A stretch of DNA of 64,000 nucleotides from IMG/VR virus record IMGVR_UViG_3300007513_000028, positions 5,674-69,673 of that record; one strand, 5' to 3'. Position numbers and translations under genes: made by a program. This stretch comes from a virus. This document shows positions 3,055 to 40,858 of this stretch, piece by piece; position 1 is the first letter of the stretch, and each line of letters begins with the position of its first letter. The notes under the pieces were generated by a model, which was not told the origin of the DNA, made no database searches, and worked only from the letters and a program-made list of their open reading frames with translations.

Positions 3055-3057
3055 GTT

Positions 3058-4359: not shown

Positions 4360-4362
4360 ATA
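4355..4362 (+). promoter_or_regulatory. Possible T4-type late promoter variant (CCTAAATA) upstream of gp25
   Basis: TAAATA core overlaps the gp5 stop, about 20 nt before the gp25 start. The same variant occurs before gp3. Confidence 0.5.
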
Positions 4363-4382
4363 CATAAAGGGAGGACTGTAAA

Positions 4383-22954: not shown

Positions 22955-23185
22955 ATGTCACGTTTGGTTAAAACAGATAATCCAGACTATATGAAAGACG
23001 AAGACAATGGGGCATTGGTTTCTACGAATGTTCGTGCATTCAATGAACATAAACTGAAAGAAGAGCAGACACAAAAATTAAAAAATCAAGAAAACGACCT
23101 AAATAATATTAAATCTGAAGTATATGAACTTAAAAATGAAATAAGTGAAATGAAAGATTTACTTCAACAACTTTTGAAAAAATAG
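22955..23185 (+). CDS. Small coiled-coil protein typically found after VrlC-like genes in T4-like phages
   Basis: KD..NGALVSTN motif followed by heptad LNNIKSEVYELKNEISEMKDLL; synteny. Confidence 0.7.
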   Translation: MSRLVKTDNPDYMKDEDNGALVSTNVRAFNEHKLKEEQTQKLKNQENDLNNIKSEVYELKNEISEMKDLLQQLLKK

Positions 23186-23198
23186 GACGTTTTAATTA

Positions 23199-26100
23199 AT
23201 GCCCAAGTTTGATTCACCGATAAATATAAAGACTCTCAAAAGCAGAAGTAGCAATTCTGCATTGGTGCATCTTGGTGATGACAACAGAGTTGGCATAGGT
23301 ACTGAGGCTCCAGAAACAAAACTCCATGTCGATGGTGCCATTACTGCCACTGGCCTGGTTGTCCCTGCCGGAATTTTGTCTACGTCTGTGGACACCGCCG
23401 AGTTTTGGGGATTTAATCCAAAATTTGATACATGGTATTTTGATGAACTTAATTTTCCTGTGGCCAATGGATATATTCAGACATCCGGCACAGATAAAGT
23501 TGAAAAGTCTTCGGATAGTGTTCTTGGTTCCTATAGCGCCCGATGGGCCCAGAGCATAGGATCTGTCTGGGAACGAGAGGTCGAATTTCCAGAACCTCTT
23601 TATGCCAATGTCTTTGTCCAAGGAACATATTCATATAAGTTTGAGTATTATGGTTCAGGAGAACCCGGCCTTGCGATCACGCTGACACATAGAGAAAAAG
23701 CTAACAGCGACCTTTCGTCTGTTGTCGGAAAAACATGGGCTTCCGAGTATTCAAATACGTTTATTTCTCCTACATTTCCTTTGCATACGCTTGGGAGTTG
23801 GCAGACCGCCGCATGGCGAGCGCATACTCCTCCGAACCGAGAAATTACCAAACTAAAGATTGAAATTATTGCAAGTTCTGCTTTGGGGCAGACTTATGAT
23901 TCGGCAGACGCCGGGATTGAATTGAGTGGCGGCGCCGGGACTGCGACATCCATTGGTGGTGATGATGATTATGATTGGTATCTGGATGGCCTGGCATTCA
24001 ATTTTATGCATCCCGATGCAAGAATTGACCAAGAGGGAAGAATCACGGGCGCATATATTGCATATGCAGCAATTGATGATGCACACATAAAGAATATGAT
24101 TTCGTCTCCTGCGGCAAGGGTTATTGCCCCAGCCAGCCACCCCACTTCGGCTGGCTTATATGTAGACGGATTGGTTGCAAACGACGACTATGCTGCCGGG
24201 TGGAGCATATCCAAAGACGGAACCATCAAGGGAACGGACATTAAAATTTACGGTCCTGATGGCAAGGTCAAGATTTCTGGAAGTGGAATAAATCCATTTG
24301 CCGAGTGGGCTGGCCGAAGCCTTGCAGACCTTGACTCAAGTGCATCGTCCTATCTCTACGGATTGGCATTTGAGGAAAGTAACTCCACCGGGCTTATGGC
24401 CAACGTCGGATTCTTGGCAACGTCAGGAACCGATTCTGATGCCATTGTTTCCAGCGCACAGTCATTATATATTGCCAATACTGTTGATGGCACGGCATCT
24501 ATCGGAAGCGCACTTGCAAACGGAACAATTCAGTACAACGGAATTGCATCAAATGCTCCTCCGGGTTCTATTTTTACTGGCGGAAAGAATGTAGTCAAAA
24601 ATCAAGATGCCTATATTTTGTTTTTGGCCAACACGCAAAAATGGGATTCTGATATTGGTGCCCAGCAAAAGTATCATGCAAACACTCTTCTTGGTGAATA
24701 TGGCCTCTATGTTCTAGGAACACCCACAGTCGGCGGATGGGTATATCATCCCCATGCAAATGACACATGGTATTCCATTGATTCTCTTCAGTCTGGCAAT
24801 CGACTACATGAAGACGACTTTCTGGTTGTCGGTAAAATCAAAACAGATATTTCTGGCAACATTCTTTCTGGAGTTCTCCAGCCTCCGAAATCTCCAGATT
24901 CGATTACTGCTCCAGAGGCATTAACTTCTGCTCCTGCCATTAATATTCCGGTTGGTGGAATTCTTTTTGCAGATATTCATTTAAACCAATGGAATCATAC
25001 TGCAAACTCAGGTGAAGTCCAACTCACAAATTCGAGAAATAATCCAAATACTGAATTTACTTTTATCCATCCCGGAACAAATGATCCAAACGACAGCACA
25101 CTTCATACAGTAAACGGTGCCTATGGTGTTCTTACAAGCCTTGAAGATTTTCCAGGGACTCGATATATTACATTTGTGGGTGCAGATAGAACAGACGAGC
25201 AAGTGGCAGCGGGCACACCAAGCTCTCGATTTACATTACAGACTGGCCATTCTCCAGATTTTGTTGCAGCCTTTCCGCTCGGCACTCCTCCGCGATGGTA
25301 CTACAATCAAGATGAAGGAAAGTTTTCTACATTCACGCCGACTGACAGAGATTGTATTGTTGCCCGTGTGGATGCCAATGGATCAGTAGGGGCACTCACA
25401 AACATTTATCGGTATGCCGAACGCGAGGCAACCACTCCAGAGGGCGGAGTAATTTCTGATGTAATCATAAATCCCCCATTGGGAATGGCATCCGGCGGAA
25501 CTCTGTTTGCAGATCTACATGTAAATAAAGAATTTAAACAATCCGACAATACCACTCCAGCCAATACTGGTTTTGTTGCTCTGGTAAATACCGAAAATAA
25601 TCCAAGAAACAGGTTCTTTGTCATTCATCCAGACAACGGATACTTTTGGGAAGTTGCAAATACTGGTCGCGGCGTCGTAACCAACTTAAATAACGGAGTG
25701 CGAACTGGGGGTTCAAATACAGGAACCCGACATATTGCATTCGTCGGAGGCACCTGGCCGCACGAAGAGAACCGATTCCCGATGGCAGCCGGATATGAAA
25801 ATGTTTCCAATGATTTTATTGCAGTAACCAAATATCATCCAGACACAGGAAAGATACATCCAACTTCTGGAGTATGGTATTACGACAATGGGCAGAATGC
25901 GACCACCACGTTTACTGTCAATGCCAATGATTTTATTATTGCCACACTCAGTTCGTTCAATGCACAGACAGATGGGATCGACCAAGTAACCCGCTGGTCC
26001 GGCCGTGCCGCACAGATTGAAATCAACGGAGAAATGGTAACCGTTGACAGCATAAGGAACGATCTGTTGGGTGGCATTGCTCATGTACTCGACTATGCCG

Positions 26101-29100
26101 AAACGGCTGCAAACACGGCAATGGATCAGGCAATTCTTGCATATGATCTTGCTGCCAATGCGTCTGCCAATGCAACAAAATCTTTGGGGCTTCTTGATAA
26201 TCAGAATGTTATTTATTTTACAGAAGAAGGTTCTGCTGCTCCTACGAGTGGAACCTATGGGAATGCTCAGTCTGATGTTGCATGGACATACAATGACATA
26301 TGGATTAATACGAGTATCTACGGCAGGCATCTTGATGGGTCGTGGAGTACCAATGCAATTTTCAGGTATGCCAATTCGGGCGGCGGCTTTGACGATTCTT
26401 CTGCAACAGAGACTTCTTCTGGTTCGACGGTGGGGCTGGCATGGAGAAGCGACCGCACCAATCCTACTGGGCGTGCATATATTGTTGGCCTCGAAGGAAG
26501 AGATTTGGCAGACAGGGCTCAAATTAATTTCTATGTCCCAAGGTCCGCAGAAGTCTATCCGTTTTATGGTCCGAATGTCGCCGTTCTTTCTACGGGAGAA
26601 TTAAATAGAAATCCAGAAGGCGACCAATGGTATGACATATTCGGAAATCCTCCAGAGAATCATCTTTATATCTATAGAACAAATACTGCATTTAGTAATA
26701 ATTCACACTATAAGGTAAGCACAGAAGACGGATTTGTTTCGGCAGCCCATAAGGGATATATTTCAACAGGCCTGGGTGCCTGGGCCCAGACGGTTCACAA
26801 TACTGCAACATCTGGTCTTTGGGACGAGACAACAAAGCCAACAGGATGGTGGGACTTTCAGGATGGTGCCGCAGGAGATGCAACAGGTCTTGTAGACTCA
26901 GAAAGAAATGCAAGGATTGCCGCCGATCAAATAATAGATGACAGCGCAGCAAATGCACTTTCGAGAGCAGCAGATGCACAGGCGGCCGCCGACAGGGAAA
27001 TCCTTGCATTCTTTGAGATTGGTGCGCCGACTGCCACAAGCAATGGTGATGTCTGGATCAAGACAGACACCGCAATTGATTCCACAGGAACCAAGAATTT
27101 AAATTCAATCTTTGTTTCAAATACCACTTCGGGCATTCCCGGAATTGGAGCAGGGAGTGACCTTTTCTGGAACTATGGGCCAAACAATGCAATTGGTTTG
27201 ATGTATCTTGAAAGTTATTCTTCGGGTGTCTCTGGAGTATTTGATCGTGGCACTAATATTATGCCAAGAGGATATTCTCTCTTTGATGCTCCTCTGAGTG
27301 ATTATGATATTTCATTAGACCCCACACAAACAAATCTTCCATATCCATTTTTTCTTGTATCGCATAGCTCGCTTAGTGGCACTCCTAAAGATACTGTAAT
27401 AAGCATTAATACAACTTCTGGCTGGGTTGGAACAAATTCGTTAGAGGTTTCGGGAAATAGTGAAGTTTGGGCACGATTTACGCGCCAGGGCCTTTGGACC
27501 CGAGGCTCGTATAATTATCCAGCAGTTCATCTTCCAAGAGGAAAAAAATGGATTTTGTCATGGTATGCGAAATCGAATAATGCACTTCAAACTCGCATTG
27601 CCCCCGCCCTAGGCCTTCGAGACAAAGATAGCCCATCGGCAAACATAGTAACGGTTTTCAATTCCACCAATGGCAAGGGAAGACTCAGCGCCAATAATGA
27701 GTGGGAACGAATGTGGGTATATTTTGACCTCACGGGAGCAAATGCCACACACACCGATCTTGATATTACTGAATATGATTCAGAACTTTATGGAAGGGGT
27801 CTTGTTGATGGAATAAGTTCATTAGCCCCTGCCGACCCATCCCATATTTTAGTCGGTACTGGAGACTCTACCCCTTGGTCAAAACCATATGCAGCAAATC
27901 TAAATTCTATGATGATTCGATTGGATGCCGTTGCGGTAGATTCTTCAGGAGTCAAAGCAGGCTCGACCCATAATGTACACGCATGGTTCGATGCCCTCCA
28001 ACTAGAAGAAGTCCCAGACAACGTATATGCTCCGTCACAATTCAAAGAACCCTCTGATGGGACTGCAATTGTATTCGGAAGAAAAATTACAGATGGAAAG
28101 ATTGTTACCCATTATTATGATTCCAGAGACAATGGCGGCCAGCATGGACCCATTCCAAATACGACTCCGACAGGGCTTCCGAATCCACAACCGCACGGAG
28201 ACTTCTGGATTGATACAGGAAATAATAATATCATTTTCAGGTATCACCAGAATGATTTTAATGCAATTCCGACTGCTCAAAATATTTTCTGGACATCTGT
28301 AACAAACGGAGATGGCTGGTATACAACAGAAGACTTGAGGACAGGCAATGCACTCTCTACTTCCTATGATGCGCTCGCAAATGCGGCATCGGCTCGGGCG
28401 GCCGCCGACAGAGAAATCTTTGCATTCTTTGAAACTGGTTCACTTAATAATTCATCACCACCAGTCGCTTCGGGAAATGGTGATATATGGATTGATACAG
28501 ATAGTTTTGCAACGCTGAATACAAGTTCAATATATGTTGCAAGGGCACCAGGGTCCGGCGCTTGGGAACAATCTCCCGATAGTGCAATTGGTCAGGTCTA
28601 TCTTGAGGCATGGACTGCCGGAGAAACGGCATCGCGGGCAGACTCTCTTGCCATAAGTGCATTCGGAACCAGCGACCTTCCGTTCCCTGTGTATCCAGAA
28701 GCCAATGGCATCATGGGAGTGGGCGCGACAGGCAATGTGGTGTTCTATAAGAATTCGACCCAGGAGTTTGAACCCGGCACCTCCACCTCGGCCGAGGGAG
28801 AGTTTTCTGCATACAATCGCGGAGGAGTTGATTTCGTCGGACCAACCGGAAAGTTGTGGTATCCAGAATCTGGGGGTTATGGGATTCCCGAAACTGGGGC
28901 CATTCACACAAGGCTTGAAGGGGCTGGCGGCACGGGCGAAACTACTGAAGCAAGGTATATTATGTATACCAATCAAAGTGCTTCCGTGCGATTTTCGAGC
29001 CCTGCTGGCATGGGAAGTCATGACCATTTTATTACAGTCGAATGGGAACCTGTATCTGAATCGTGGCAAGCGTATGATAATAGTACCGGCGTTTTTAAGT

Positions 29101-32100
29101 TCACTCCAGACGCAGCAAATGGCGACTTTCTTGTTGGCAAAATCACAAGACCAACCGCAGTTCCAGAAGGAATAAAGACTCTGGAATCATGGGTCTTCAA
29201 GACCCTTCCTGTCCAGACACAAAATTTCACAGACGGAAAGATTGTCACTCACTTTGGAACCCACTATACTGTTTCTGGGCCGGACAAGGGCACCTGGGGC
29301 CCAATTCCAAATACAACTCCGACAGGTCTTGCAAATCCACAGCCGCATGGCGACTTCTGGATTGACACTTCAAACAACAATATTGTTTTCCGCTATCATC
29401 AGAATGATATTGATGCCGCAGTTCCTTCTGCCCAGGTAGCTTTTCATTATGCAGCCACCTCGGCTTCTCCAGATGGATGGTACTCCACAGAAGACTTGAG
29501 AACGGGCAATGCACTCTCTACTTCATATAGTGCAGTTCAGGCTGCGGCGACCGCCCAGGCAGCAGCCGATAGAGAGATTCAGGTTTTCTTTGATCCCTCG
29601 ACCACAAATTCAATTCCAAATGCTTCAGGAAACGGAGATGTTTGGATTCAAACCGATCTTGCAATAAAGGCAGATGGTTCTGCAAACACAGGAGCAATCT
29701 ATAGGGCAAATACACAAAATACAGGAGCGCACTATATTGACCTGGGTGCCAACTATATGCCGAGAGCATATACTACTTTTGAATATCCAGAAGACCAGTA
29801 TAGACGCGATAGTGTATCTGTTAAATATCCTATTTCTGAAATTGATAATTATTATGGGGCCCCGTCATGGACCGGAAATATTTCTATTGACACGACTCAT
29901 TCAAAATTTGGTGGGGCAAGCATTCGACATAGAATGCGAGAAGAGTCGTTACATTATCACGGGTTTGCGCTAGGAGCAAATTGGCCCCCCGGCACTCATC
30001 CGGGAGCGGATACCGAGGCACAATTAAATTCTTATGGGGGAATTAAAATTCCCAAAGGAAAAAAGTGGATATTTTCATATTGGACATATACTGACTCCGA
30101 TTGGTATAGTTCTGCGTCAGACCCTTTTGACGGGCAAGAGGTTTCAATATGGTTAAGAAATACCGAAACTCCGACTGCGAACCTTGCCTCTGTCCGATAC
30201 GCCCGAGCAAATATTACTGCAAAAAATAAATGGGAGCGGCAATCTGCGGTTCTGGATCTTAGATATACTTCTACAATTCCCGGAGAAGGGCTCCAAGTTC
30301 CGACCAATTTACACGGCACAGGATTGCCTAATTTCACTCTTTTAAGCACAGTCTATACTGCCGAAGGAACAGCGTCTGGCGGAGCAGCCGCCACCCCAAT
30401 TGCCTGGAATGATGTTGACGAGATTGTGCCCAGACTAACTATTGCCGATGGCGTGTCATCAAGTTCTTCTGTACGAACCTCCATTCATTCAGGAAACACA
30501 ATTTGGTATGATGGATTCATGTTGGAAGAAGACACTTCTGGCACTAATGCCAATACTCCTTCTGATGATGTTCACTACTGGCACCCAGCCCCAAACAATG
30601 GAATTGGCACCACATATCTCTTAGGATATGCAAACAATGATTATACGCGGGCCCTTGCAGACGGAAAGATTGTAAATCATTATGGTCCGAACTATGGTTC
30701 CAATCCATACTTTGGGCCAGATCCAGAGTTCACTCCCAAGGACAGGCTGGACAATCCGTCTCCGCATGGCGACCGATGGGTCAACACATCAAACAATAAT
30801 ATTGAATTTGTATACAATCAGAATAATTCAAATTATACTGCTCAGACAATTGTGTGGCATCCGGGTTCTCCATTTACCTTTAATGAACTTTCTGACCGTT
30901 CTGCATGGTACTCGACAGAAGATGACCGGGTTGCCAATGCACTTGCGTCTTCGTATAATGCCAATGCTGCTGCACTTGCTGCCCAGGGCCGTGCAGACGA
31001 TGCATACTCATCTGCGGCAGTCGCACAGGCAGCAGCCGACAGAGAAATTCTTGCGTTCTTTGCTTTACTTTCTAATGTTCCTGCTGCATCTGGAAACGGT
31101 GACATTTGGGTTGTTACTGACTACCCAGTAAATCTTGACGGAACTCCAAATGTGGCATCTCTTTATATTTCAAATACATTATCAACATCTCCTCCTGCAA
31201 TTCAAGACTCTGTAACAGCAACACAATATTGGAATCCTGCCCCAGAAAATGCAATTGGTCTTTCATATCTTGAGAGTTTTGCAGCAGGTGTCTCTGGAGC
31301 CTATCAGCGTGGTGATAATATTATTTCAAGAGGGTATTCTACCTTTGATGACCCGGCTGATTATGACATATTTAGAGGTCACGAACCAGGGGTGGGGAAA
31401 GTTTCGCGTACAGGACAAGAACCATATCCTATGACGGTGGAGGGTGGGGGAGGTATTGCGGAGAACGGCCTGGCAAATGTAACCATTGATACCACAAGGT
31501 CGCCCTCAGAAATTCCTGGGGGAAATAGTTTACGAATTAGGTCACCTCTTACTCCTTCCGGCCTAGAGGTGACATTTGCCAACGTCAATTACTATGACGA
31601 TACTACTTCTGCTGCTCATAATGGAACTTGGGCAATCAAAATTCCAACAGGAAGACGTTGGGTATTTTCTTATTATGTATCTGGAGATAATGATACATTA
31701 GCCACAGGCGCCCATAATCCATATATTATTCAATTAAATTTAAAGGATACCCAGAATCCAAACGCAAATGTGGCATACCTAAGATCAAATGAGGCCAAGT
31801 CGATACATCCAGATATTGATGAAGCAAATGTGTGGGTACGCAGATCTACTGTTATTGATTTTACGGATACCGAACATGATATGGGATGGAAGGACGGAGA
31901 CGTTCCGTGGGCTCCTGCGGGCGGAAATGGGAAAGGGCATTACCATCCGACTTTAGGGTATGATGCACCTGGCAACGGATGGCTTGTGTATGGGGCTGGG
32001 CCAGATGTTGGCGACGCGCCATACGAACCTCTGTATGCTGCCAATGTAGATAGCATGGTTATTCATTTGGGCCCGAGATGGGGCGAACAAGCCGAGGGCT

Positions 32101-35100
32101 TTCGGCGAGCAGTAGGCAATACCATGTGGTTCTCTGGATTCCAGCTTGAAGAAGTTGCATCTGATATAGTTACCCCGTCTGAATTCAAGCGACCCACAGA
32201 CAGAACCGATATTATCTTCGGCCGCCAAATCACAGACGGCAAGATTCTCACACGATATGAAACCCATTATCCAGATGATCTCTCGGGAACACATTGGGGC
32301 CCAAATCCAACCATCACTCCAAAGCAGGGTCTGCCCAATCCAGAACCCCACGGAGATAGCTGGCACAATACATCAAACAACAATCTGATTTTTAGGTATC
32401 ATCAGAACACCTCAGACAATTCTGCACAGACAATGTTCTGGACGGCAAGCACAGATCCAGAGGCTCCTTCTGGATGGTACTCGACAGAAGACCCGCGAAC
32501 CATCATTGGCGTCAATGCAAACACGACTGCCCATGAGGCACTTGCCAATGCAGCAACAGCACAGGCGGCCGCCGACAGAGAAATTCAGTCTTTCTTTGCA
32601 GTCCATACTCCTGCACAAACTGCAAGTGGAAATGGTGATGTCTGGATTCAAATTGATAATGTATTAAAGTCAGACGGCACGGCAAACACAGGTTCAATTT
32701 TTGTGTGGAATGATGCCATTCCTGAGTGGCAACAAAGACCAGAAAGTGCAATTGGCCGAGGGTTCCTGAAGACATTCACAGAAGGAATTGGAAGCAACTG
32801 GATGTCCAAGGCATTTTCTACATTTGATGAAGATCCAAATGACTATAATCATCAGATAACTTATTTAAATCGACCAGACAGGAATACTGCTGGCGCGAAC
32901 CCCGATTGGCACAATGAACATCCCGGGGCCCCATATCAATTTTATGGTTGGCAGCATAATACACATACAACAAATACAACATATGGATATGGAGATTCTG
33001 GCAGCCTTGTTGTCACGACAAACAATGTTCTCGGCGGAACCTTTGGTTCAGAAGATGACCCGTGGACCGACTGGTATGAATCTCATTTATATATCGGAGC
33101 GGGGACATTTGACCATCCTGTATATTTCACGGACCCATATAATTATATCAGAGTTCCAAAGGGCAAGAAGTGGATTTACTCTTTCTACATCCGAACGGAC
33201 TTTGCCACTCCGACAACTGCCCCAGGTGGAAAATTTTATTTACAAGATTTTATTGTAAGAAACTCTGAAAACAAAAAAGCAAATGCAGTATATATGAATA
33301 GTTTTGAGATGGCTCCTGTGGGAACGGGGGCTGTTCCTTCCAGATGGATTCCGGTAACCGATGCTGCCGCATCTGGCTGGGAAAGAGTTTCTGGTGTTTT
33401 GGATTTATCTTCCGAGAGCTTTGTGGTTGGTAGTCAAATTGATAAGGACAATCATACGGCAGCAGGAATCTTTGAAGATAATGGCGCGACAGCCGCAAAA
33501 ATTAAATATAATGAAGTTGATGAACTTCGATTTCATTCGTATACAGGATCGCTTGTCGGAAATACAATATGGATAAGTGCGGCACAATTGGAAGAAGTTG
33601 CTGGCGAAAGAATAAATCCAAGTCCATTCCAAGAACCTTCTTCAAAGAGCCAACTTGATTTTGCCAGAGCCATTGCAGACGGAAAGATTGTCACTCACTA
33701 TGAACCAAATAGTGGAAATCCAAATTATTTGGGCCCAGACCCATCGACTTTTCCAAAGTCGGGCGAACCCAATGTGACTCCCTTTGGTGATCTTTGGGTT
33801 GATGTCGCAAATAATAATATTGTATTCCGTTATCATCAGAACACTTCAAACTATACTTCAAGAAAAGTTTATCATGCAAATACTGCACCGCATAATCATG
33901 CCGATGAATCTGGATGGTATTCCACAGAAGACCTGAGAACTCCAGATGCTGCTGCCATTATTGGCGATGACTCGACGCCGGGAACTCTTGTGTACGATAC
34001 CCAGAAGGCACTCGCAGATGCAGCAAAGGCTGCGACAGCCGCCGATGCAGAACTTTTTGTGTTCTTTGAAACAAGTTCAAACACAGACATGATTGATGAC
34101 CGTTTTGGTTATGGCTCATCGACAGGCCCGGCAACAGGAAATGGCGACATTTGGATTCATACTGACTTTGCAACAAATCCAGATGGTACTCCAAACAATC
34201 AGGCAATCTACTTTGCAAACCTGAGTACAGATGCAGCCGGGCCTGGTGTTGTCCGCATAGGAACCACAGGCTGGACACAATCCCCAGACAACGCAATAGG
34301 TCGCGGATTCATCGAACAGTTTGCGAGTGTCGGTGTGAAGAATTGGATGCACTCTGGGTATTCTCTCTTTGATGAGCCTATAGATGACTATGATATTCCT
34401 GACACCTCTTCGGGAACCAGAGCATATGGAGGTTTTACTACACGACCATGGCCAATGGGAAGAGTTCATAATGCATCTTTGCTTGAAATTGATACTTCCG
34501 GTGGTGCCAATGCATATATCGGAAGCACAAGTCTAAAATATACTCATGGCGCATCGGGTGGCGGGCAAGAATCCACAGTTGGTTTGGCAAATACATATAA
34601 TCCTGTTTCTCTTGGGCCTTGGCCAGCCAAGTATGCAATTGAGATTCCCAAGGGAAAGAGATGGATTTTTTCTAGTTATGCAAAATCTAATGATGCCTCG
34701 GCAGAATTTAGACTCCGTGTTTATGGAGCAAACATTTCTCATAGAACTACTTTTGTGGGAACCTATGATGCGAATGGAGTGTCTTTAGGAACTTCCGGTG
34801 CCTATAAAACTGTTTCGGCGGCTGATACTTGGGACAGGATTTCTGGTGTTCTTGATTTGTCTACGTCAACTAATGATTTAGACCAAATAGACCAATTAGT
34901 TATTGTATTAAATACAAAACATTCAACAACCCAGGTTCGTGAAAATTGGTTCGACGCAATCCAACTTGAAGAAGCCCCTGGGGCCAGAATCCTCCCCGGT
35001 CAATTCTCTGACCCTGACAGACAAATCAGCGATGACTTCGCACGGGCACTCTCAGACGGAAAGATTCTGACCCACTATGAACCTGCCATTGACAATCTCA

Positions 35101-38100
35101 AGGCATGGTGGATGATGGATGCCGCAAATACCTCTGGGTGGATTGCGAATGAAGTTAATCCTGGGACTTATGATGCGGTGTGGACGGAGAATGCAACTCA
35201 AAATACATTTGTTGGCGATACCATCTTTGGGGCCGGAAAGAGTGCAGACCTTCTAAATACTGCCGGAATTGGTTTGCTTGAAGATGATGATGTCAATACA
35301 TTAAACGAGACAACATATACCATTTGGTTCAAACCAACCGGGCAAAATCAAGATACTGGTGCAAGAATTATTACAAGAGATGTTTCTTCTTTTTGGGGAT
35401 TGTATTTTAGTGGTAATTGGAGTGCTTCTGCCCAGACAGGAGATGTGCTACCAGTAATATTTAATATAGCAAGTTCAGTTTCTGATACAATGTCTGCTGG
35501 CGTAAAATTTGGAGTATGGAATTTCTTTGCAATTACTCTTGATTATAATACAAAGGTAGCAAAATCATATTCTTATAATGAAATTGATGGATTTGTTGTT
35601 GAATCACCAAGCCTTACTATACCTTCGACTGCAACCCCATCTAATGATCCTGATCTAACAGACGAAGGATCTCCATTTCATATTCGTTCCGTTAAATTGG
35701 GAATTAATTCCGAATCTCCGGCAGCAAAAATAATAGAAAACCCTACCAGTCGTATACACGGAAGATATGACCATGTAAGATTCTATGACAAGGTTCTCTC
35801 CAAACCTGACATTGATGCCATCTTTAACATAAGAACCCGAACAAGAAAACAACCAGACGCCGAACTGTATCCGTACTGGTACTCCAACAATGTTGTATAT
35901 GGGCCAGACCCCGAATTTACTCCGCAGAAAAGACTCCCAAATCCTGCACCCCACGGGGATTACTGGTATGACTCTTCGGACTTCAATCGACCATTCCGAT
36001 ACAATCAGAACACTTCCAACAAGGTCGCTCAGACGGCCTACTATTCGACCATTGCATATCAAGAAGAAAAACTTGGATACGAACCCTCTGGATGGTTTAC
36101 CACAGGCGACGGAACCGCCGAAATTTCTGCCGACTCTATTGGTGATGTAGGAAGAGATGTTGCAGAATCACTTGAAAACATAAGGCGACTGAATCCTCTT
36201 GTTGACCATGAAATTAAGATTTTCTTTGAGACAGAAGGCACGACACATTTTGCAAATGCATTAGGCACGCACACCACAGCCGCCTACGGAGACATCTGGA
36301 TCAACACCAGCGACTATAATGCCAATGGCTATACTGGTGGATTGGTTTCCAATGCAATCTTCCGATGGCAGAACAGTCTCGGTTTGTCTACTGACGATAC
36401 AAGAACAGAGGCTTCGAGCGGAGCAACTCAGGGCCTGGCATGGCGTTCCGCAGAAGACGATGCATTCGGTCAAATTTATCTTTCTGCATCCTATGCCTCA
36501 AATGCAGCCGACCGATTGGTTGCAGTCTATTCGGGCTCAGGAACTGCCGAAGCAAGTGCATGGTATGGTCCGAACGTTGCATTCACCATGACAGGAATTC
36601 GGAATCCAAATCCAGATGGTGATCTCTGGTATGACACAGGAAATAATAATATTGCTCATGTGTTCAACAAGGTCAATGGCACCTGGCCCGAGTTTGCACA
36701 GACTGTTCATTCTGATGCATCTTCAATGGTTTCCGAAGGATGGTACAGACTTGAAGACCTTCGGGCGGCGTCGGCCGACCGCGCCCGTGAGATTGCACTT
36801 GCGACAGGAACGGACAGGCACGCTCAGATATTTACCAGTACAACTGCTCCGACAACATCAACAGGCAATGGTGATATTTGGGTTGATACGAGTGATATAT
36901 TAAATTCTGATGGTACTGCAAATTATGATGCAATTTATATTGCAAATACAAAAGACCCCACTTCTATTCCTGCAAATGATGGAAGAGGCTGGACAGTAGA
37001 ACCAAATAGTGGTCTTGGTCGTTCACATCTTGAAAGACTTATGGGCGAATCAGGAAGAAATTGGATGCCAGCCGCAATCTCTTTGTGGAATTCACCTTCT
37101 GTAGATTATCAAATATTACACGCAAGTACAACTTGGCACACAAATCCATTGCCTCCCGAACCATTACATAGATTTCATTCGTATGTGGTGCTTCGGACTC
37201 CCCGGCCGCATACTTATTATAATACAAGTGGCGGGCTTTCTTCAACAGATGGAATTGCAGGTGTCGGAAATACTGCGCGTATTGAAATTATTTCTGATAC
37301 AAATGTTGGTCCGACAGGAAATAGTTATATTAGTGGAAAGGCATTCCGAACATATACTGGAAATACTATAGACTCAGATGGCAATTCTCATGAGACAGAT
37401 TATTTGCTAAGTTGGTTTGCGAATGCTGCTGCCAGCGAAGAGTCTGCATGGGAATCACCTGCTGTGATTGACATTCCAAGAGGAAGAGATTGGATTCTTT
37501 CTTATTATACAAAATCCTATAGCTATCCTGCCATCAGCCCTGCCGGTAACCGGACTGGAGAATTAAGAGTATACGCTAAAAAGAAATATGATGATGACGG
37601 AAGCGCAAATACATGGCATACTGCCCGAGATGGCGGGCTTGGTTTTGACGTGAGCGCCCCCCCATACCCCACTCAAGGAGAATGGGTAAGAAGACATAGC
37701 TTTCTTAACTTTTCTCGCGACGGCCAAGAAGGCGGCAGGTATGGAACTAATTATTCTATAAAAGAAGGAAGTGAAGTATATAATGGAGTCTTTGAAGGTG
37801 CTGATGGTGGGCTTGCTACTGTTGGTGCGACTGTAGATATTACTAATCCTGAATATGTAGAGTATACAGCCGAAGCAGATGGTTTTAGACCAACTCATAC
37901 ACTAGACAGCGGTGATTTCGCACAATTTGCAGGAGTGGACGGGGGACTTGTTACTGCAAATGTTCAATCGGTTGTCGATCATAACATGCCCGGAGTCCAA
38001 AGTATCACGTTTGGGCGCATCAACTGGAAAACAACCGTGGATACTACAATGGGAGGGGCGGACGGCAAGCAAACGGATATTCGTTGGTCTGGAACTCCTG

Positions 38101-40838
38101 CGGTCGGCGGCGCATGGACAAAAGTTTACTTTAATATGTCATCTCTCCCTGAGTGGAATGACAGAACAATAACAGAAGTTCAACTTACTCCTTATTATAC
38201 TCTTGATACAGGTGACAAGTATCGAGTTGCAAATGTAACCATTTCAGCTTCGACAGTACCAGAAAGAAAAGAAATAGATGCATTAATGTTGAGTCCTGTT
38301 ATTCATTATGGTAATCAGGATGTATTCTGGGATGGATTCCAACTTGAAGATGTCACAGGAACAGACAGAAGAACACCAGGGCCTTTCCAATCACCAGATG
38401 ATGCAGGCCAAATTGATTTCTCTCGCGCAATTGCAGACGGCAAGACAGTCTACTTTGTCAGCAACGCATTCCACACCTCTGGTGATGACCATGCATATGG
38501 TCCGAACCCATCAACGACCGACAATGGCTTGACAAACCCAGAACCATACGGAGACAAGTGGATTAGTCTTTCGCCTCCATACAAGACCTATCTGTATTTC
38601 TCTAATGCAACAAATAAGATTGCACAGACAGCCTTCCATACGCCTACCACCTATGCCATTGCCAATTATGCAAACACGAACTGGCCCTTCGGAACGTCAA
38701 ATAATTCTACGGGTTGGTACGAATATCGAGACACAGGTGATGCTCTTTCCCAAGAAGGTCTGCAAGTCAAACTTCACATGGATTCTATTTTTCGAGTTCC
38801 AATTGGCGAGGCAATATGGACCGAAAACTCACTCACAAATCTCATTAATTCTCTTATTACACTTCGAGAAGACCATAATCAAGAGGCACCATATCTCGAT
38901 CTCGGAGACATCACAGCATTCGGAGAGACAAGAGAACTTTTCCTGAATTCTGTTCCGCCAAGAGATGCAAACCTTATGGGTCATTGGACATTCAATTCAT
39001 TTGGTGTGGATGACAATGGTGTACGATACCTTCCTGACGCGACTGGCCGAGGAAACCATGCACGGGTTGTCGGATATACTGCAAATCAGGCTGCATTCTC
39101 TGAACACGCACCCGGCGAAGGATTTGTGAATGTCTCTGGAAATCTTTCTTTGAATAATTTTTCAGGAACTATTGATACAGTACCTTCCAAAGAAGACGAC
39201 GGTCATATTGTTATTGCACAACATGGAGACAATTCTGTCACAAATCTACAGATTGATGGGCAACCTTATACTGCATTGAATATTGCAGACACGGCAACGT
39301 TCAATAAGGGGACGTTCTGTTTCTGGGTCAAGCCAGGAACACAAATTCAATCTGGCGGCTCCGGCGGCCATGGGATTTTTGGAAGACACCTTGCTGGTTG
39401 GGGAAGTTTGCGTATCGTTACCCAAGATTCTGGTGCCGCGCAACCCGATGCAAACAATGAGGTTTCTCTCGATTGGTTTTATCCTTCTCAATGGGACGAC
39501 CCTGCTAGTAATTGGGCAGGCCTGGCGTTAGCCAATCCCGATTCAAGTGATGCTGATTGGGTTCATCCTCCTGTTAATAATATAAATCGAGGATTTAAAC
39601 AGGATGAATGGCATTTTGTTGCATGGCAATGGGACTTTGATTCGACAGTAAGTGGAGAAAAGTATACGCGACTTTGGATATATCGTGATGGTGCAGGATT
39701 ATTGTATAATGGCTTAAAGACTGCAAATGATGATATGACCGCAAGCTATGATGCTGTTGAGTATATGGGGCTGGGAGACAGCTATGCATTGGTTCTGGGG
39801 GCCATGGGAACTGAGGTCAGCGTTGCCGAAGGCGGCCCGCTCGGAACAGAAGCCATGAGGTCTGGAAATCCCCGCGCAGTCGGGAACTACGACGAAGCCC
39901 GATTGTATTCAGAGGTTCTGTCTGCAAGAAATCTCCGATGGCTCTTTGAGACTCCTTCTGGGCGACCCGTTGCTGCTCCGAATCGACCTGGGATTGGTGT
40001 CAAGAAGGGGTATATTAATTTCTTTGAGAGTCCACCTACTGGTACTAATATGCCGTTTGCAGTATACACAAACAGCGTGGCATATTTCCACGGATTTGAC
40101 GTAGACGGAAACCCAGCCGATGTGAAACCATACATTTCGTTTAATGGAAATGTCAAGTATTTGGAAAAGGGGCATCTAAAGGTTGGAATTAGTTCTGAGG
40201 AAGCCGCCAGAGCGGTTCAAGGAAATACTGGATATGTAATGTATAATGATACTGCATATGTTGATGGTTATGATTCTACGGGCTCCTTTCCCTATCTCGA
40301 CCCAGATTCAAATTATGTTTTTGCAATGCCCATTGGAGCAAATTCAACACAACCTCACACATGGAAGTATCAACAGTTTTGGAACCTCCTCCCGGCAAGT
40401 CAGGAAAAACCAGGCTGGGAATATTTTACACCAAACGATAATAAAGATTTGGTTGTGGGTGAAATGAGACTTGCAAATTCTTCTGAAACAGGACTCCCCA
40501 CCGACGACCCGGCAGACAAGTGGCTCCAAATAGAATCCATCGAAGCCTATCAGATGGCTCGGAAACCGAGTGTGGTCCGAGAAGCCTACAACTTCAACAT
40601 CAGACCGGAAGATTTTGAAACTTTCCAAGACAACCACTTCTTTGCAAATGCACAATTCTGGACAACAGACAAGATGCACGGAACATACATTGCAGATGCA
40701 AGCATTGCAAATGCACAAATTCAATCATTGGCAGCCGACAAGATTGAGGCAGGTGTGATCGAAGCCAAGGTCACAGTCGGCGGAGAAGCCTCCATTGTCA
40801 TTGATGGTGTGAACAATCGAATCATTGTCAAAGATTAA
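23199..40838 (+). CDS. Giant (5879 aa) modular tail-fibre/adhesin protein
   Basis: Uninterrupted 17.6-kb ORF. It has an N-terminal RVGIGT.AP..KLHV.G fibre motif, repeated GD.W scaffold modules, jelly-roll and LamG-like passengers, and a C-terminal YIADASIANAQIQSLAADKI motif. Confidence 0.85.
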   Translation: MPKFDSPINIKTLKSRSSNSALVHLGDDNRVGIGTEAPETKLHVDGAITATGLVVPAGILSTSVDTAEFWGFNPKFDTWYFDELNFPVANGYIQTSGTDKVEKSSDSVLGSYSARWAQSIGSVWEREVEFPEPLYANVFVQGTYSYKFEYYGSGEPGLAITLTHREKANSDLSSVVGKTWASEYSNTFISPTFPLHTLGSWQTAAWRAHTPPNREITKLKIEIIASSALGQTYDSADAGIELSGGAGTATSIGGDDDYDWYLDGLAFNFMHPDARIDQEGRITGAYIAYAAIDDAHIKNMISSPAARVIAPASHPTSAGLYVDGLVANDDYAAGWSISKDGTIKGTDIKIYGPDGKVKISGSGINPFAEWAGRSLADLDSSASSYLYGLAFEESNSTGLMANVGFLATSGTDSDAIVSSAQSLYIANTVDGTASIGSALANGTIQYNGIASNAPPGSIFTGGKNVVKNQDAYILFLANTQKWDSDIGAQQKYHANTLLGEYGLYVLGTPTVGGWVYHPHANDTWYSIDSLQSGNRLHEDDFLVVGKIKTDISGNILSGVLQPPKSPDSITAPEALTSAPAINIPVGGILFADIHLNQWNHTANSGEVQLTNSRNNPNTEFTFIHPGTNDPNDSTLHTVNGAYGVLTSLEDFPGTRYITFVGADRTDEQVAAGTPSSRFTLQTGHSPDFVAAFPLGTPPRWYYNQDEGKFSTFTPTDRDCIVARVDANGSVGALTNIYRYAEREATTPEGGVISDVIINPPLGMASGGTLFADLHVNKEFKQSDNTTPANTGFVALVNTENNPRNRFFVIHPDNGYFWEVANTGRGVVTNLNNGVRTGGSNTGTRHIAFVGGTWPHEENRFPMAAGYENVSNDFIAVTKYHPDTGKIHPTSGVWYYDNGQNATTTFTVNANDFIIATLSSFNAQTDGIDQVTRWSGRAAQIEINGEMVTVDSIRNDLLGGIAHVLDYAETAANTAMDQAILAYDLAANASANATKSLGLLDNQNVIYFTEEGSAAPTSGTYGNAQSDVAWTYNDIWINTSIYGRHLDGSWSTNAIFRYANSGGGFDDSSATETSSGSTVGLAWRSDRTNPTGRAYIVGLEGRDLADRAQINFYVPRSAEVYPFYGPNVAVLSTGELNRNPEGDQWYDIFGNPPENHLYIYRTNTAFSNNSHYKVSTEDGFVSAAHKGYISTGLGAWAQTVHNTATSGLWDETTKPTGWWDFQDGAAGDATGLVDSERNARIAADQIIDDSAANALSRAADAQAAADREILAFFEIGAPTATSNGDVWIKTDTAIDSTGTKNLNSIFVSNTTSGIPGIGAGSDLFWNYGPNNAIGLMYLESYSSGVSGVFDRGTNIMPRGYSLFDAPLSDYDISLDPTQTNLPYPFFLVSHSSLSGTPKDTVISINTTSGWVGTNSLEVSGNSEVWARFTRQGLWTRGSYNYPAVHLPRGKKWILSWYAKSNNALQTRIAPALGLRDKDSPSANIVTVFNSTNGKGRLSANNEWERMWVYFDLTGANATHTDLDITEYDSELYGRGLVDGISSLAPADPSHILVGTGDSTPWSKPYAANLNSMMIRLDAVAVDSSGVKAGSTHNVHAWFDALQLEEVPDNVYAPSQFKEPSDGTAIVFGRKITDGKIVTHYYDSRDNGGQHGPIPNTTPTGLPNPQPHGDFWIDTGNNNIIFRYHQNDFNAIPTAQNIFWTSVTNGDGWYTTEDLRTGNALSTSYDALANAASARAAADREIFAFFETGSLNNSSPPVASGNGDIWIDTDSFATLNTSSIYVARAPGSGAWEQSPDSAIGQVYLEAWTAGETASRADSLAISAFGTSDLPFPVYPEANGIMGVGATGNVVFYKNSTQEFEPGTSTSAEGEFSAYNRGGVDFVGPTGKLWYPESGGYGIPETGAIHTRLEGAGGTGETTEARYIMYTNQSASVRFSSPAGMGSHDHFITVEWEPVSESWQAYDNSTGVFKFTPDAANGDFLVGKITRPTAVPEGIKTLESWVFKTLPVQTQNFTDGKIVTHFGTHYTVSGPDKGTWGPIPNTTPTGLANPQPHGDFWIDTSNNNIVFRYHQNDIDAAVPSAQVAFHYAATSASPDGWYSTEDLRTGNALSTSYSAVQAAATAQAAADREIQVFFDPSTTNSIPNASGNGDVWIQTDLAIKADGSANTGAIYRANTQNTGAHYIDLGANYMPRAYTTFEYPEDQYRRDSVSVKYPISEIDNYYGAPSWTGNISIDTTHSKFGGASIRHRMREESLHYHGFALGANWPPGTHPGADTEAQLNSYGGIKIPKGKKWIFSYWTYTDSDWYSSASDPFDGQEVSIWLRNTETPTANLASVRYARANITAKNKWERQSAVLDLRYTSTIPGEGLQVPTNLHGTGLPNFTLLSTVYTAEGTASGGAAATPIAWNDVDEIVPRLTIADGVSSSSSVRTSIHSGNTIWYDGFMLEEDTSGTNANTPSDDVHYWHPAPNNGIGTTYLLGYANNDYTRALADGKIVNHYGPNYGSNPYFGPDPEFTPKDRLDNPSPHGDRWVNTSNNNIEFVYNQNNSNYTAQTIVWHPGSPFTFNELSDRSAWYSTEDDRVANALASSYNANAAALAAQGRADDAYSSAAVAQAAADREILAFFALLSNVPAASGNGDIWVVTDYPVNLDGTPNVASLYISNTLSTSPPAIQDSVTATQYWNPAPENAIGLSYLESFAAGVSGAYQRGDNIISRGYSTFDDPADYDIFRGHEPGVGKVSRTGQEPYPMTVEGGGGIAENGLANVTIDTTRSPSEIPGGNSLRIRSPLTPSGLEVTFANVNYYDDTTSAAHNGTWAIKIPTGRRWVFSYYVSGDNDTLATGAHNPYIIQLNLKDTQNPNANVAYLRSNEAKSIHPDIDEANVWVRRSTVIDFTDTEHDMGWKDGDVPWAPAGGNGKGHYHPTLGYDAPGNGWLVYGAGPDVGDAPYEPLYAANVDSMVIHLGPRWGEQAEGFRRAVGNTMWFSGFQLEEVASDIVTPSEFKRPTDRTDIIFGRQITDGKILTRYETHYPDDLSGTHWGPNPTITPKQGLPNPEPHGDSWHNTSNNNLIFRYHQNTSDNSAQTMFWTASTDPEAPSGWYSTEDPRTIIGVNANTTAHEALANAATAQAAADREIQSFFAVHTPAQTASGNGDVWIQIDNVLKSDGTANTGSIFVWNDAIPEWQQRPESAIGRGFLKTFTEGIGSNWMSKAFSTFDEDPNDYNHQITYLNRPDRNTAGANPDWHNEHPGAPYQFYGWQHNTHTTNTTYGYGDSGSLVVTTNNVLGGTFGSEDDPWTDWYESHLYIGAGTFDHPVYFTDPYNYIRVPKGKKWIYSFYIRTDFATPTTAPGGKFYLQDFIVRNSENKKANAVYMNSFEMAPVGTGAVPSRWIPVTDAAASGWERVSGVLDLSSESFVVGSQIDKDNHTAAGIFEDNGATAAKIKYNEVDELRFHSYTGSLVGNTIWISAAQLEEVAGERINPSPFQEPSSKSQLDFARAIADGKIVTHYEPNSGNPNYLGPDPSTFPKSGEPNVTPFGDLWVDVANNNIVFRYHQNTSNYTSRKVYHANTAPHNHADESGWYSTEDLRTPDAAAIIGDDSTPGTLVYDTQKALADAAKAATAADAELFVFFETSSNTDMIDDRFGYGSSTGPATGNGDIWIHTDFATNPDGTPNNQAIYFANLSTDAAGPGVVRIGTTGWTQSPDNAIGRGFIEQFASVGVKNWMHSGYSLFDEPIDDYDIPDTSSGTRAYGGFTTRPWPMGRVHNASLLEIDTSGGANAYIGSTSLKYTHGASGGGQESTVGLANTYNPVSLGPWPAKYAIEIPKGKRWIFSSYAKSNDASAEFRLRVYGANISHRTTFVGTYDANGVSLGTSGAYKTVSAADTWDRISGVLDLSTSTNDLDQIDQLVIVLNTKHSTTQVRENWFDAIQLEEAPGARILPGQFSDPDRQISDDFARALSDGKILTHYEPAIDNLKAWWMMDAANTSGWIANEVNPGTYDAVWTENATQNTFVGDTIFGAGKSADLLNTAGIGLLEDDDVNTLNETTYTIWFKPTGQNQDTGARIITRDVSSFWGLYFSGNWSASAQTGDVLPVIFNIASSVSDTMSAGVKFGVWNFFAITLDYNTKVAKSYSYNEIDGFVVESPSLTIPSTATPSNDPDLTDEGSPFHIRSVKLGINSESPAAKIIENPTSRIHGRYDHVRFYDKVLSKPDIDAIFNIRTRTRKQPDAELYPYWYSNNVVYGPDPEFTPQKRLPNPAPHGDYWYDSSDFNRPFRYNQNTSNKVAQTAYYSTIAYQEEKLGYEPSGWFTTGDGTAEISADSIGDVGRDVAESLENIRRLNPLVDHEIKIFFETEGTTHFANALGTHTTAAYGDIWINTSDYNANGYTGGLVSNAIFRWQNSLGLSTDDTRTEASSGATQGLAWRSAEDDAFGQIYLSASYASNAADRLVAVYSGSGTAEASAWYGPNVAFTMTGIRNPNPDGDLWYDTGNNNIAHVFNKVNGTWPEFAQTVHSDASSMVSEGWYRLEDLRAASADRAREIALATGTDRHAQIFTSTTAPTTSTGNGDIWVDTSDILNSDGTANYDAIYIANTKDPTSIPANDGRGWTVEPNSGLGRSHLERLMGESGRNWMPAAISLWNSPSVDYQILHASTTWHTNPLPPEPLHRFHSYVVLRTPRPHTYYNTSGGLSSTDGIAGVGNTARIEIISDTNVGPTGNSYISGKAFRTYTGNTIDSDGNSHETDYLLSWFANAAASEESAWESPAVIDIPRGRDWILSYYTKSYSYPAISPAGNRTGELRVYAKKKYDDDGSANTWHTARDGGLGFDVSAPPYPTQGEWVRRHSFLNFSRDGQEGGRYGTNYSIKEGSEVYNGVFEGADGGLATVGATVDITNPEYVEYTAEADGFRPTHTLDSGDFAQFAGVDGGLVTANVQSVVDHNMPGVQSITFGRINWKTTVDTTMGGADGKQTDIRWSGTPAVGGAWTKVYFNMSSLPEWNDRTITEVQLTPYYTLDTGDKYRVANVTISASTVPERKEIDALMLSPVIHYGNQDVFWDGFQLEDVTGTDRRTPGPFQSPDDAGQIDFSRAIADGKTVYFVSNAFHTSGDDHAYGPNPSTTDNGLTNPEPYGDKWISLSPPYKTYLYFSNATNKIAQTAFHTPTTYAIANYANTNWPFGTSNNSTGWYEYRDTGDALSQEGLQVKLHMDSIFRVPIGEAIWTENSLTNLINSLITLREDHNQEAPYLDLGDITAFGETRELFLNSVPPRDANLMGHWTFNSFGVDDNGVRYLPDATGRGNHARVVGYTANQAAFSEHAPGEGFVNVSGNLSLNNFSGTIDTVPSKEDDGHIVIAQHGDNSVTNLQIDGQPYTALNIADTATFNKGTFCFWVKPGTQIQSGGSGGHGIFGRHLAGWGSLRIVTQDSGAAQPDANNEVSLDWFYPSQWDDPASNWAGLALANPDSSDADWVHPPVNNINRGFKQDEWHFVAWQWDFDSTVSGEKYTRLWIYRDGAGLLYNGLKTANDDMTASYDAVEYMGLGDSYALVLGAMGTEVSVAEGGPLGTEAMRSGNPRAVGNYDEARLYSEVLSARNLRWLFETPSGRPVAAPNRPGIGVKKGYINFFESPPTGTNMPFAVYTNSVAYFHGFDVDGNPADVKPYISFNGNVKYLEKGHLKVGISSEEAARAVQGNTGYVMYNDTAYVDGYDSTGSFPYLDPDSNYVFAMPIGANSTQPHTWKYQQFWNLLPASQEKPGWEYFTPNDNKDLVVGEMRLANSSETGLPTDDPADKWLQIESIEAYQMARKPSVVREAYNFNIRPEDFETFQDNHFFANAQFWTTDKMHGTYIADASIANAQIQSLAADKIEAGVIEAKVTVGGEASIVIDGVNNRIIVKD
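26190..38750 (+). repeat. Alternating internal scaffold repeats A (AADREI.AFF..GNGD.W) and B (DGKI.THY..P.PHGD.W..NNNI.FRY.QN..GWY.TEDLR)
   Basis: A-type near 26991, 28407, 29568, 31038, 32574, 34044, 36204 and 36813. B-type near 28092, 29232, 30660, 32235, 33678, 35055 and 38436. Confidence 0.9.
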
Positions 40839-40858
40839 TTGGAGACATATATAATATT

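Follow-up and report, generated by a model that had tools for sequence, protein, structure and literature searches.

Which role does a single viral protein of 5879 amino acids (aa) play, and how is a chain of this size organized? The open reading frame (ORF) concerned occupies positions 23199-40838 (+) of a stretch of 64,000 nucleotides (nt), hereafter the window, which belongs to the 69,673-bp IMG/VR record IMGVR_UViG_3300007513_000028 with a CheckV completeness estimate of 38%. An initial annotation of the window described the product, here called the giant, as a very long beads-on-a-string fibre in which scaffold modules of types A and B alternate and present different passenger domains. 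Our analysis makes it likely, though far from certain, that the giant is a tail fibre or adhesin of an uncultured marine T4-like myovirus, probably as part of the virion and probably as a homotrimer. Of the earlier description, the fibre-like virion protein is retained as the best reading, because the gene lies in a baseplate/neck position with synteny to phage Syn9, the A/B unit is linked to tail fibres by profile and fold searches, the C-terminus carries a tail-protein motif, the N-terminus matches a solved trimeric fibre and the linkers change length in steps of seven residues.

The gene itself is real. It forms one open frame of ~17.6 kb (5879 aa plus stop), and JGI and ENA assemblies contribute 14 members to its 90%-identity protein cluster. 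Five of these are full length, collinear and 99.7-99.97% identical to the giant (P0001, P0018 and P0025 with 5879 aa, P0002 and P0019 with 5868 aa), so at least five assemblies contain the complete gene; the other nine are pieces, of which seven end at the last residue without a start and two begin at residue 1 and end early. The sole length difference among the full-length copies is an 11-aa indel in module X1a (aa 664-674), which is also present in contigs as 10 nt in place of 43 nt at 25180-25224. Contigs of runs X1 and X3, the possible source of the window itself, cover the whole gene at an even depth of ~8-13, with two of them, 5.4 kb (26382-31786) and 21.6 kb (32017-41500) long, each reaching across several cassettes. 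For a repetitive gene of short-read metagenome origin, an assembly artefact with collapsed, expanded or chimeric repeats has to be considered, the more so as two other runs, X5 and X9, yielded many short pieces only, at 90-95% identity and with joints at conserved A/B motifs. These pieces were rejected as copy-number variants of the same phage and taken as relatives in view of their 90-95% matches; the sides of the joints measure 20-50 letters, as expected from relatives. The best DNA repeat pair reaches a maximum of 82% identity over 119 nt, which is too diverged to collapse and marks the DNA-level repeats as old. Since the assemblies agree, the contigs tile the gene and the repeats are old, the chimera that the initial annotation had named as a threat to its reading is very unlikely, the more so as the frame is open throughout and the architecture is common to relatives; we regard it as the least probable of all alternatives weighed here.

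Modules were mapped with hidden Markov model (HMM) profiles built from the giant itself, whose internal repetition is evident from 80 non-redundant matches (E≤1e-4, 24.5-59% identity) between its own parts in a self-BLAST of 200-aa pieces. The scaffold comprises nine A and nine B modules of ~85-115 aa each in strict alternation. The complete order is N (aa 1-575), X1a, X1b, A1, B1, A2, Z1, B2, A3, x2, B3, A4 (with Z2 inside), B4, A5, Z3, B5, A6, Z4, B6, A7, Z5, B7 (with LamG1 inside), A8, B8, A9, Z6, B9, LamG2, x3 and C. The alternation had been recognized before, but the HMM counts replace the earlier figures of about eight A and seven B modules; the divergent A1-B1 pair and the A8-B8 pair were probably missed. 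The profiles match exactly the passenger order proposed at that time (Z1, an X-type domain, Z2, Z3, Z4, Z5, LamG, Z6, LamG and an X-slot), and both insertions into scaffold modules were recovered: within A4 the tail at aa 2408-2482 resumes the A-profile match at positions 69-107 (E 2.6e-9), and the B match of B7 at aa 3946-4008 resumes at 4213-4320. Z6 does contain ~200 additional aa, whereas the 'Y' family suggested for them could not be identified. The X-family claimed for two slots holds for x2, which is related to X1 (hhalign probability 80%, E 1.4e-5), but is not demonstrable for the C-terminal x3 by profile alignment (probability ~1%). The contrast between a conserved scaffold and divergent Z domains was borne out, as the other B-A units of the window are 30-55% identical to the first one, compared to 19-30% among the Z copies.

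Profiles built from A modules only and from B modules only can be aligned to each other in the N-terminal half (hhalign probability 71.6%, E 3.5e-5, 43 columns), an iterated A profile recruits B modules, and both types have the pattern AD-x-I-x-x-F/Y ... GD-x-W-x-D-T ... N-x-x-I/Y ... W in common. There is moderate support for regarding A and B as two subtypes of one ~100-aa unit. An AlphaFold2 model of one B-A unit (mean predicted local distance difference test, pLDDT, 87.7; predicted template modelling score, pTM, 0.57) consists of two modules, in each of which four or five short strands are predicted ahead of a helix. The predicted B-to-A helix (unit residues 94-117) is the Ala-rich linker, which agrees with the linker helices proposed by the initial annotation, and the A module would close with a second helix containing the NAIG..YLE motif. 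Solved relatives were not recovered by a Foldseek search of the PDB with the B-A model (0 matches at E≤1e-3), by VIA-align over 48,161 chains (best Z-score 3.5) or by comparing the B-A profile with PDB sequences (nothing significant, best E 0.61). Altogether, 44 B-A units were aligned, eight from the window and 36 from the IMG/VR loci L009 and L011-L015. Pfam matches of these units were at chance level only (2 of 44, to different unrelated families, best E 0.0034), and the whole giant, scanned in two overlapping pieces, matched no Pfam or PHROGs family.

Against 1.84 billion representative proteins the 44-unit profile gave 844 matches at E≤1e-3, of which 378 reach 1e-10 and 69 reach 1e-30, many with 5-21 matched stretches. 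The repeat of protein P0055 is a ~70-aa unit composed of an Ala-rich helix followed by AD-K-I-x-T-F-Y-Q and then GDLWIDTD, and P0055 matches genes for a 'tail fiber protein' of a Vibrio phage and a 'minor tail protein' of an Arthrobacter phage. Twelve repeat proteins were scanned with PHROGs: 11 match phrog_33754 (unknown function), seven match the tail protein families phrog_1330, 38009, 21973, 23593 and 35520, two carry tail fiber PHROGs, and all carry at least one of PHROGs 33754, 25191, 1330, 38009 and 21973. Protein P0043, made of the same repeats, has the N-terminus of Pfam Phage_T7_tail (68.8 bits). A fold search of BFVD with the B-A model returned 11 matches at E≤1e-3; the nine named ones are tail, tail-fibre or adsorption proteins, and two are nameless. 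Judged by these matches, the A/B unit is probably a widespread phage tail-fibre repeat without a Pfam family or a solved relative.

The spacing from the invariant Trp that ends B to the Asp that opens A was measured in 43 of the 44 units. In 27 of them it amounts to 23, 30, 37, 44, 51 or 72 residues, i.e. one class modulo 7. Such whole-heptad length steps fit a coiled coil with a fixed register between the flanking modules, and this points to coiled-coil segments as B-to-A linkers. A profile of the N-terminal region (giant residues 14-99) matches residues 10-94 of chain C of PDB entry 8OJN (E 2.5e-4). According to the portion of PMC10769870 used here, 8OJN covers residues 632-922 of Bd3182, a solved trimeric fibre of Bdellovibrio, and the match may be taken as a modest hint of a threefold fibre. 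The motif RVGIGT..P...LHV in the N-terminal region also resembles the capping-loop motif of the mosaic adhesive trimer (MAT) fibres described in that portion. At the other end, the C-terminal 84 aa match phrog_19445, the tail tip protein Tal (E 1.5e-5), as well as the tail protein phrog_1330 and the tail fiber protein phrog_16534.

The design is common to a family of proteins. Fifteen other protein clusters of 3739-5319 aa share it with varying cassette numbers, and seven IMG/VR loci contain giant ORFs of like layout, as far as each locus reaches. In the 16 giants formed by the window protein and these 15 relatives, A and B alternate in 254 of 256 neighbouring scaffold modules. Inserts of more than 120 aa occupy 81 of 134 A-to-B junctions, compared to 6 of 120 B-to-A junctions. 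Per protein there are 5-13 A, 6-12 B and 2-6 Z modules. The start N-X-X-A-B-A is retained in 12 giants and the end B-LamG-x3 in 14, 13 of which also keep the C motif. B modules of the giant and of the relative P0003 are orthologous by position, with identities of 64, 70, 65, 59, 62, 66, 67, 42 and 73% along the diagonal, but Z domains lack positional orthology and are 29-42% identical everywhere. Thus, the scaffold is inherited, whereas the passengers diverge or are exchanged. We found no description of this family in the literature searched, a limited set without supplements.

Among the passengers, LamG1 lies above the gathering cut-off of Pfam Laminin_G_3 (PF13385; 29.7 versus 27.6 bits). 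LamG2 has no Pfam match of its own; 28.3 and 18.9 bits are reached by the orthologues in L015 and L009, respectively. The Z domains resemble CBM_4_9 jelly rolls by motif, which we treat as a lead and not as membership. The sole CBM_4_9 match among 11 related giants scanned whole is at residues 1448-1515 of P0008 (35.8 bits), approximately where relatives carry their first Z. Searches of the PDB by phmmer with P0008, LamG1 and LamG2 gave no match, and a homologue search with the Z alignment gave a single one, a fragment. The term lectin-like may therefore be applied to LamG1, whereas for Z it is a lead only. Since Z2 and LamG1 both sit inside scaffold modules, their ends must be close to each other, and this mode of insertion suggests a display of passengers as side domains and not as in-line beads.

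The gene context is that of a tail. By PHROGs, the genes upstream encode gp48, gp53, gp5, gp6, a gp7-like ORF (1811 aa), gp8 and two phrog_358 proteins, after which the giant follows. It is directly succeeded by ORFs of 908, 440 and 1379 aa and farther downstream by gp13/14/15, terminase, sheath, tube, portal, protease, scaffold and major capsid protein. The giant shares its strand with the surrounding structural gene block, and related loci have these neighbours too, on the upstream side in L009-L013 and L015 and on the downstream side in L014. Since the portal is 51-54% identical to cyanomyovirus portals, the phage can be considered a divergent marine T4-like phage. The giant is directly preceded by a 76-aa ORF, the C-terminal half of which is coiled-coil-like; the ORF is retained at this position in L009-L012, L014 and L015 with 38-66% identity. 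It has a weak match in Syn9 gp106 (78 aa, 'virion structural protein'; E 9e-5) and may be a fibre partner or an assembly factor.

We propose the following model for the giant as a tail fibre. A single ancient tail-fibre repeat of phages, present 18 times and in two subtypes that take turns, would build the shaft; every copy would pair a beta nodule of four or five strands with a helix behind it. B would be joined to A by the Ala-rich helix that varies in seven-residue steps, with the B-helix-A dyad as basic unit, and short coiled coils would link the 18 nodules in a homotrimeric shaft. The passengers (six Z, two LamG-type, x2 and x3) would be looped out, mostly between A and the next B, and decorate this shaft. 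The conserved N-terminal 1000 aa (N, X1a and X1b) may anchor the fibre to the baseplate periphery beside VrlC-like proteins, while the passengers and the C-terminal B-LamG-x3-C block are predicted to bind surface glycans during adsorption. As a rough estimate, the shaft would measure ~100-200 nm, similar to the long fibre of T4.

Several observations weigh against this interpretation. The template modelling (TM) scores of the BFVD matches are low (0.19-0.32 among the 11 at E≤1e-3, 0.16-0.32 across matches). A direct PHROG match exists for just one of the 44 B-A units (phrog_38009, E 3.7e-4); the tail-fibre link of the A/B unit is therefore transitive, and the Ala-rich composition may inflate it. 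The nominal binomial p of 3e-12 for the linker lengths is inflated by related units, with 6 of 17 distinct lengths in the favoured class. Regarding the passengers, Z1 scores 13.7 bits (E 0.084) against CBM_4_9 (PF02018), for which the gathering cut-off is 25.9 bits; none of 23 Z sequences matches CBM_4_9 at E≤0.01, and no Z of the window passes any Pfam cut-off. Profiles of Z, x2 and X1 gave nothing significant against the PDB, and the Z profile aligns neither to the LamG profile nor to the CBM_4_9-like stretch of P0055. The giant had no match by blastn and tblastn in the isolated-phage collection. psbA was absent from all five fragment records (32-59% complete), a result without bearing on the host of the phage. 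For the giant itself, the ORF, its module layout, the family, the synteny and the predicted fold of the repeat are shown, whereas virion location, trimer state, side display and glycan binding are inferred.

Different explanations of the locus have to be compared with the tail fibre. The giant could be a surface protein that stays monomeric, a string of beads comparable to Ig-domain or adhesin chains in which the helices are mere spacers; the B-A unit was modelled confidently without partners (pLDDT 87.7), and neither VIA-align nor Foldseek yielded a solved trimeric relative of it. The seven-residue steps of the linkers, the N-terminal match to the trimeric 8OJN, the T7-fibre N-terminus on P0043 and the tail-fibre matches in BFVD speak for a trimer, so that we hold a monomer to be improbable. 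We consider it even less probable that the product is not packaged but is expressed late and secreted or placed on the cell surface to modify the infected cell or its environment. Such a role would fit that Pfam and PHROGs recognised no attachment domain with a known baseplate partner, but the gene is embedded on the same strand in a structural gene block with conserved flanking genes and encodes a tail-protein motif at the C-terminus.

A stronger competitor, although still rather unlikely, is a virion appendage other than the primary receptor-binding fibre, e.g. a whisker- or hair-like decoration of the baseplate or tail. Its lectin-like domains would let the virion cling weakly and reversibly to particles, mucus or surfaces other than those of the host, or would act as environmental sensors, and specific adsorption would be left to the three downstream ORFs or to the VrlC-like proteins. 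Indeed, three more large unassigned ORFs are located in the same block, and two VrlC-like, adsorption-associated proteins precede the giant. Passengers that vary between close relatives without positional orthology are compatible with such an appendage, but they fit the determination of host range equally. The terminal B-LamG-x3, which is kept in most giants like a dedicated distal tip, and the annotation of the repeat's relatives as tail fibres argue, if not decisively, against such an appendage.

Going beyond the fibre reading, the A/B dyads may represent a fixed scaffold with slots, and the gene a combinatorial display system in which A/B sequences, also at the DNA level, serve as recombination handles for cassettes to be gained, lost or swapped. 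We put this forward tentatively, as a possibility to which we give somewhat more room than to the accessory appendage. A cassette would comprise a passenger and its flanking scaffold, and exchange would occur within and between phages. If so, each fibre would carry ten or more lectin-like domains, or about thirty sites as a trimer; no receptor-binding protein described so far would be as multi-specific, and one phage could adsorb to many surface glycotypes. In the section of PMC2984593 on which we draw, marine T4-like phages are reported without recognisable homologues of the T4 fibre genes. Their host recognition is for this reason largely unexplained. The giant family is a concrete candidate for this function with a simple and testable design, a widespread tail-protein repeat as shaft and defined slots with varied lectin-like domains. 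If confirmed, this design would explain changes in host range by cassette exchange, add a new structural family to phage fibre biology and offer a natural scaffold for displaying several binding domains.

Table 1. Modules of the giant and neighbouring features; positions refer to the window
Feature	Position (nt)	Strand	Residues and remarks
gp7-like baseplate wedge ORF	6674..12109	+	1811 aa
First phrog_358 protein	13914..19940	+	2008 aa
Second phrog_358 protein	19970..22930	+	986 aa
76-aa ORF	22955..23185	+	directly upstream of the giant; coiled-coil-like C-terminal half
N-terminal conserved region	23199..24923	+	aa 1-575; a segment of the trimeric Bdellovibrio MAT fibre is similar to residues 14-99
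X1a + X1b tandem domain pair	24924..26153	+	aa 576-758 and 759-985
A1 + B1, divergent first scaffold pair	26166..26813	+	aa 990-1103, 1098-1205
A2	26961..27233	+	aa 1255-1345
Z1 passenger	27237..28073	+	aa 1347-1625
B2 + A3	28071..28628	+	aa 1625-1810; unit that was folded
x2 passenger	28629..29210	+	aa 1811-2004; distant X1 relative
B3	29211..29534	+	aa 2005-2112
A4, split	29538..30644	+	aa 2114-2205, 2408-2482; Z2 inside (aa 2179-2461)
B4 + A5	30639..31295	+	aa 2481-2588, 2604-2699
Z3 passenger	31299..32216	+	aa 2701-3006
B5 + A6	32214..32792	+	aa 3006-3114, 3116-3198
Z4 passenger	32775..33659	+	aa 3193-3487
B6 + A7	33657..34340	+	aa 3487-3591, 3606-3714
Z5 passenger	34317..35036	+	aa 3707-3946
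B7, split	35034..36158	+	aa 3946-4008, 4213-4320; LamG1 inside (aa 3975-4214, nt 35121-35840)
A8 + B8 + A9	36174..37055	+	aa 4326-4437, 4431-4533, 4529-4619
Z6 passenger	37041..38417	+	aa 4615-5073; nested ~200-aa insertion at ~aa 4810-5030
B9, last scaffold module	38415..38765	+	aa 5073-5189
LamG2-like domain	38901..39962	+	aa 5235-5588
x3 domain	39963..40583	+	aa 5589-5795
C-terminal 84 aa	40584..40835	+	tail-protein motif IADASIANAQIQSLAADKIEAG; PHROG matches
A modules 1-4			aa 990-1103, 1255-1345, 1727-1810, 2114-2205 plus 2408-2482
A modules 5-9			aa 2604-2699, 3116-3198, 3606-3714, 4326-4437, 4529-4619
B modules 1-5			aa 1098-1205, 1625-1725, 2005-2112, 2481-2588, 3006-3114
B modules 6-9			aa 3487-3591, 3946-4008 plus 4213-4320, 4431-4533, 5073-5189
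ORFs of 908, 440 and 1379 aa	40859..49060	+	directly after the giant
Stem-loop	40908..40933	+	11 pairs, 6 of them G-C
Tail tube gene	57220..57762		
Second tail-tube-like ORF	63259..63762	+	phrog_45, E 5e-37

Some features of the window accompany the giant. The first of the two consecutive phrog_358 proteins contains DUF4815 (165 bits), the second matches the VrlC-like 'adsorption associated tail protein' of Rhizobium T4-like phages, and both match parts of Syn9 gp105. The gp7-like ORF has PD40 beta-propeller repeats (129.7 bits) and is the sole other ORF of the window that shares a module with the giant, namely one Z-like domain (aa 1005-1258), which the Z profile matches at E 3.7e-11. The ORFs of 908, 440 and 1379 aa, which have homologues behind the giant in L014 as well, matched neither PHROGs nor Pfam and may encode additional components of the fibre or baseplate. 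The second tail-tube-like ORF is located after the major capsid gene. The stem-loop, a strong one, lies ~70 nt past the stop of the giant, within the start of the next ORF. The motif TATAAATA, which we take to be the T4 late-promoter motif, occurs seven times in the window and nowhere upstream of the giant, and seven matches were reached in 4 of 100 shuffles; scans of the window for sigma-70 promoters and terminators were near chance level. In the near-identical copies of the giant (99.7-99.97%), substitutions bunch in short patches at 31788-31844, 31974-32018 and 30924-30962, and the 11-aa indel of X1a lies at 25180-25224. In Z3, five changes lie within aa 2864-2882 of P0024 and three within aa 2926-2940 of P0018, and in B4 three within aa 2576-2588 of P0018. 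This patchiness looks like local recombination or gene conversion and not like scattered drift.

The long tail fibre proteins of T4, gp34 to gp37, form a long baseplate-attached fibre for reversible adsorption. Their likeness to the giant is confined to this presumed role, since T4 uses four polypeptides instead of one, and the gp34/gp37 families gave no Pfam or PHROG match with the whole giant or with its 15-16 pieces. The initial annotation considered the giant far longer than gp34 or gp37. This applies to the number of residues, whereas the physical length is perhaps close to that of the T4 long fibre, as a large share of the mass would sit at the sides of the shaft. Section 13 of PMC2984593 reports cyanomyoviruses without wac, g10, g11, g12, g34, g35 and g37 and states that unknown structural proteins may substitute for them.

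By location, the putative fibres of Syn9 are nearest. Syn9 gp108 (1779 aa, 'putative fiber') occupies the equivalent slot after gp105 (VrlC-like) and gp106, and Syn9 gp101 (YP_717768.1; 'virion structural protein, putative fiber') has 6076 aa and is longer than the giant, the size of which is therefore not unique. In contrast to the giant, gp101 is encoded upstream of a gp10-like gene, and its tested part gave one short weak match to the gp7-like ORF of the window. Six Syn9 proteins tested had no match to the A, B, B-A, Z, LamG, X, N and C profiles at E<0.01, and blastp with the same six was empty at E≤0.01. The PHROGs that gave no family for the giant include phrog_701, a putative family of gp101.

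The MAT fibres of Bdellovibrio (Bd3182, 8OJN) are similar in being mosaic trimeric fibres with exchangeable adhesive domains, but they are bacterial surface proteins of which, in the part of PMC10769870 considered, only the tip varies. An S74 domain is absent from the Pfam scan of the giant, and the resemblance is restricted to the local match to a shaft segment of Bd3182.

The short-repeat fibres, i.e. the 'tail fiber protein' of Vibrio phage D96a type, the 'minor tail protein' gp95 of Arthrobacter phage Racecar and the T7-type P0043, contain what is probably the repeat of the giant, as do PHROGs 33754, 25191, 1330, 38009 and 21973. They have the Ala-rich helix, AD-x-I-x-x-F/Y, GD-x-W-x-D-T and the conserved Trp in 5-21 copies. 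Their repeats are uniform, of ~70 aa and without passengers, whereas the giant has units of 85-115 aa in two alternating subtypes with large domains between the dyads.

The nearest working analogue is the extended Tal of the BK5-T type. In the excerpts of PMC9692632 used here, Tal of the lactococcal phage BK5-T is a trimeric fibre of 1904 aa and ~140 nm with ten copies of a 3-beta shaft domain, and Tal of this type carries carbohydrate-binding modules and a distal receptor-binding head. Like the giant, the evolved Tal fibres of siphophages of Gram-positive hosts thus combine a repeated small shaft domain with carbohydrate-binding modules, and most of the proteins that the A/B unit matches in BFVD are of this kind (tail, Tal or central fibre). 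The Tal fibres differ by 3-beta domains with collagen-like linkers, a gp27-like N-terminus and their place in a siphophage tail tip; they have one third of the size of the giant and lack an alternating layout of two subtypes. Giant size, known from Syn9 gp101, and a repeated shaft with carbohydrate-binding modules, known from siphophage Tal, are hence not novel. New are the strict alternation of two subtypes with slots at defined places, the many and varied passengers that a single chain carries, and a shaft unit that has neither a Pfam family nor a solved structure.

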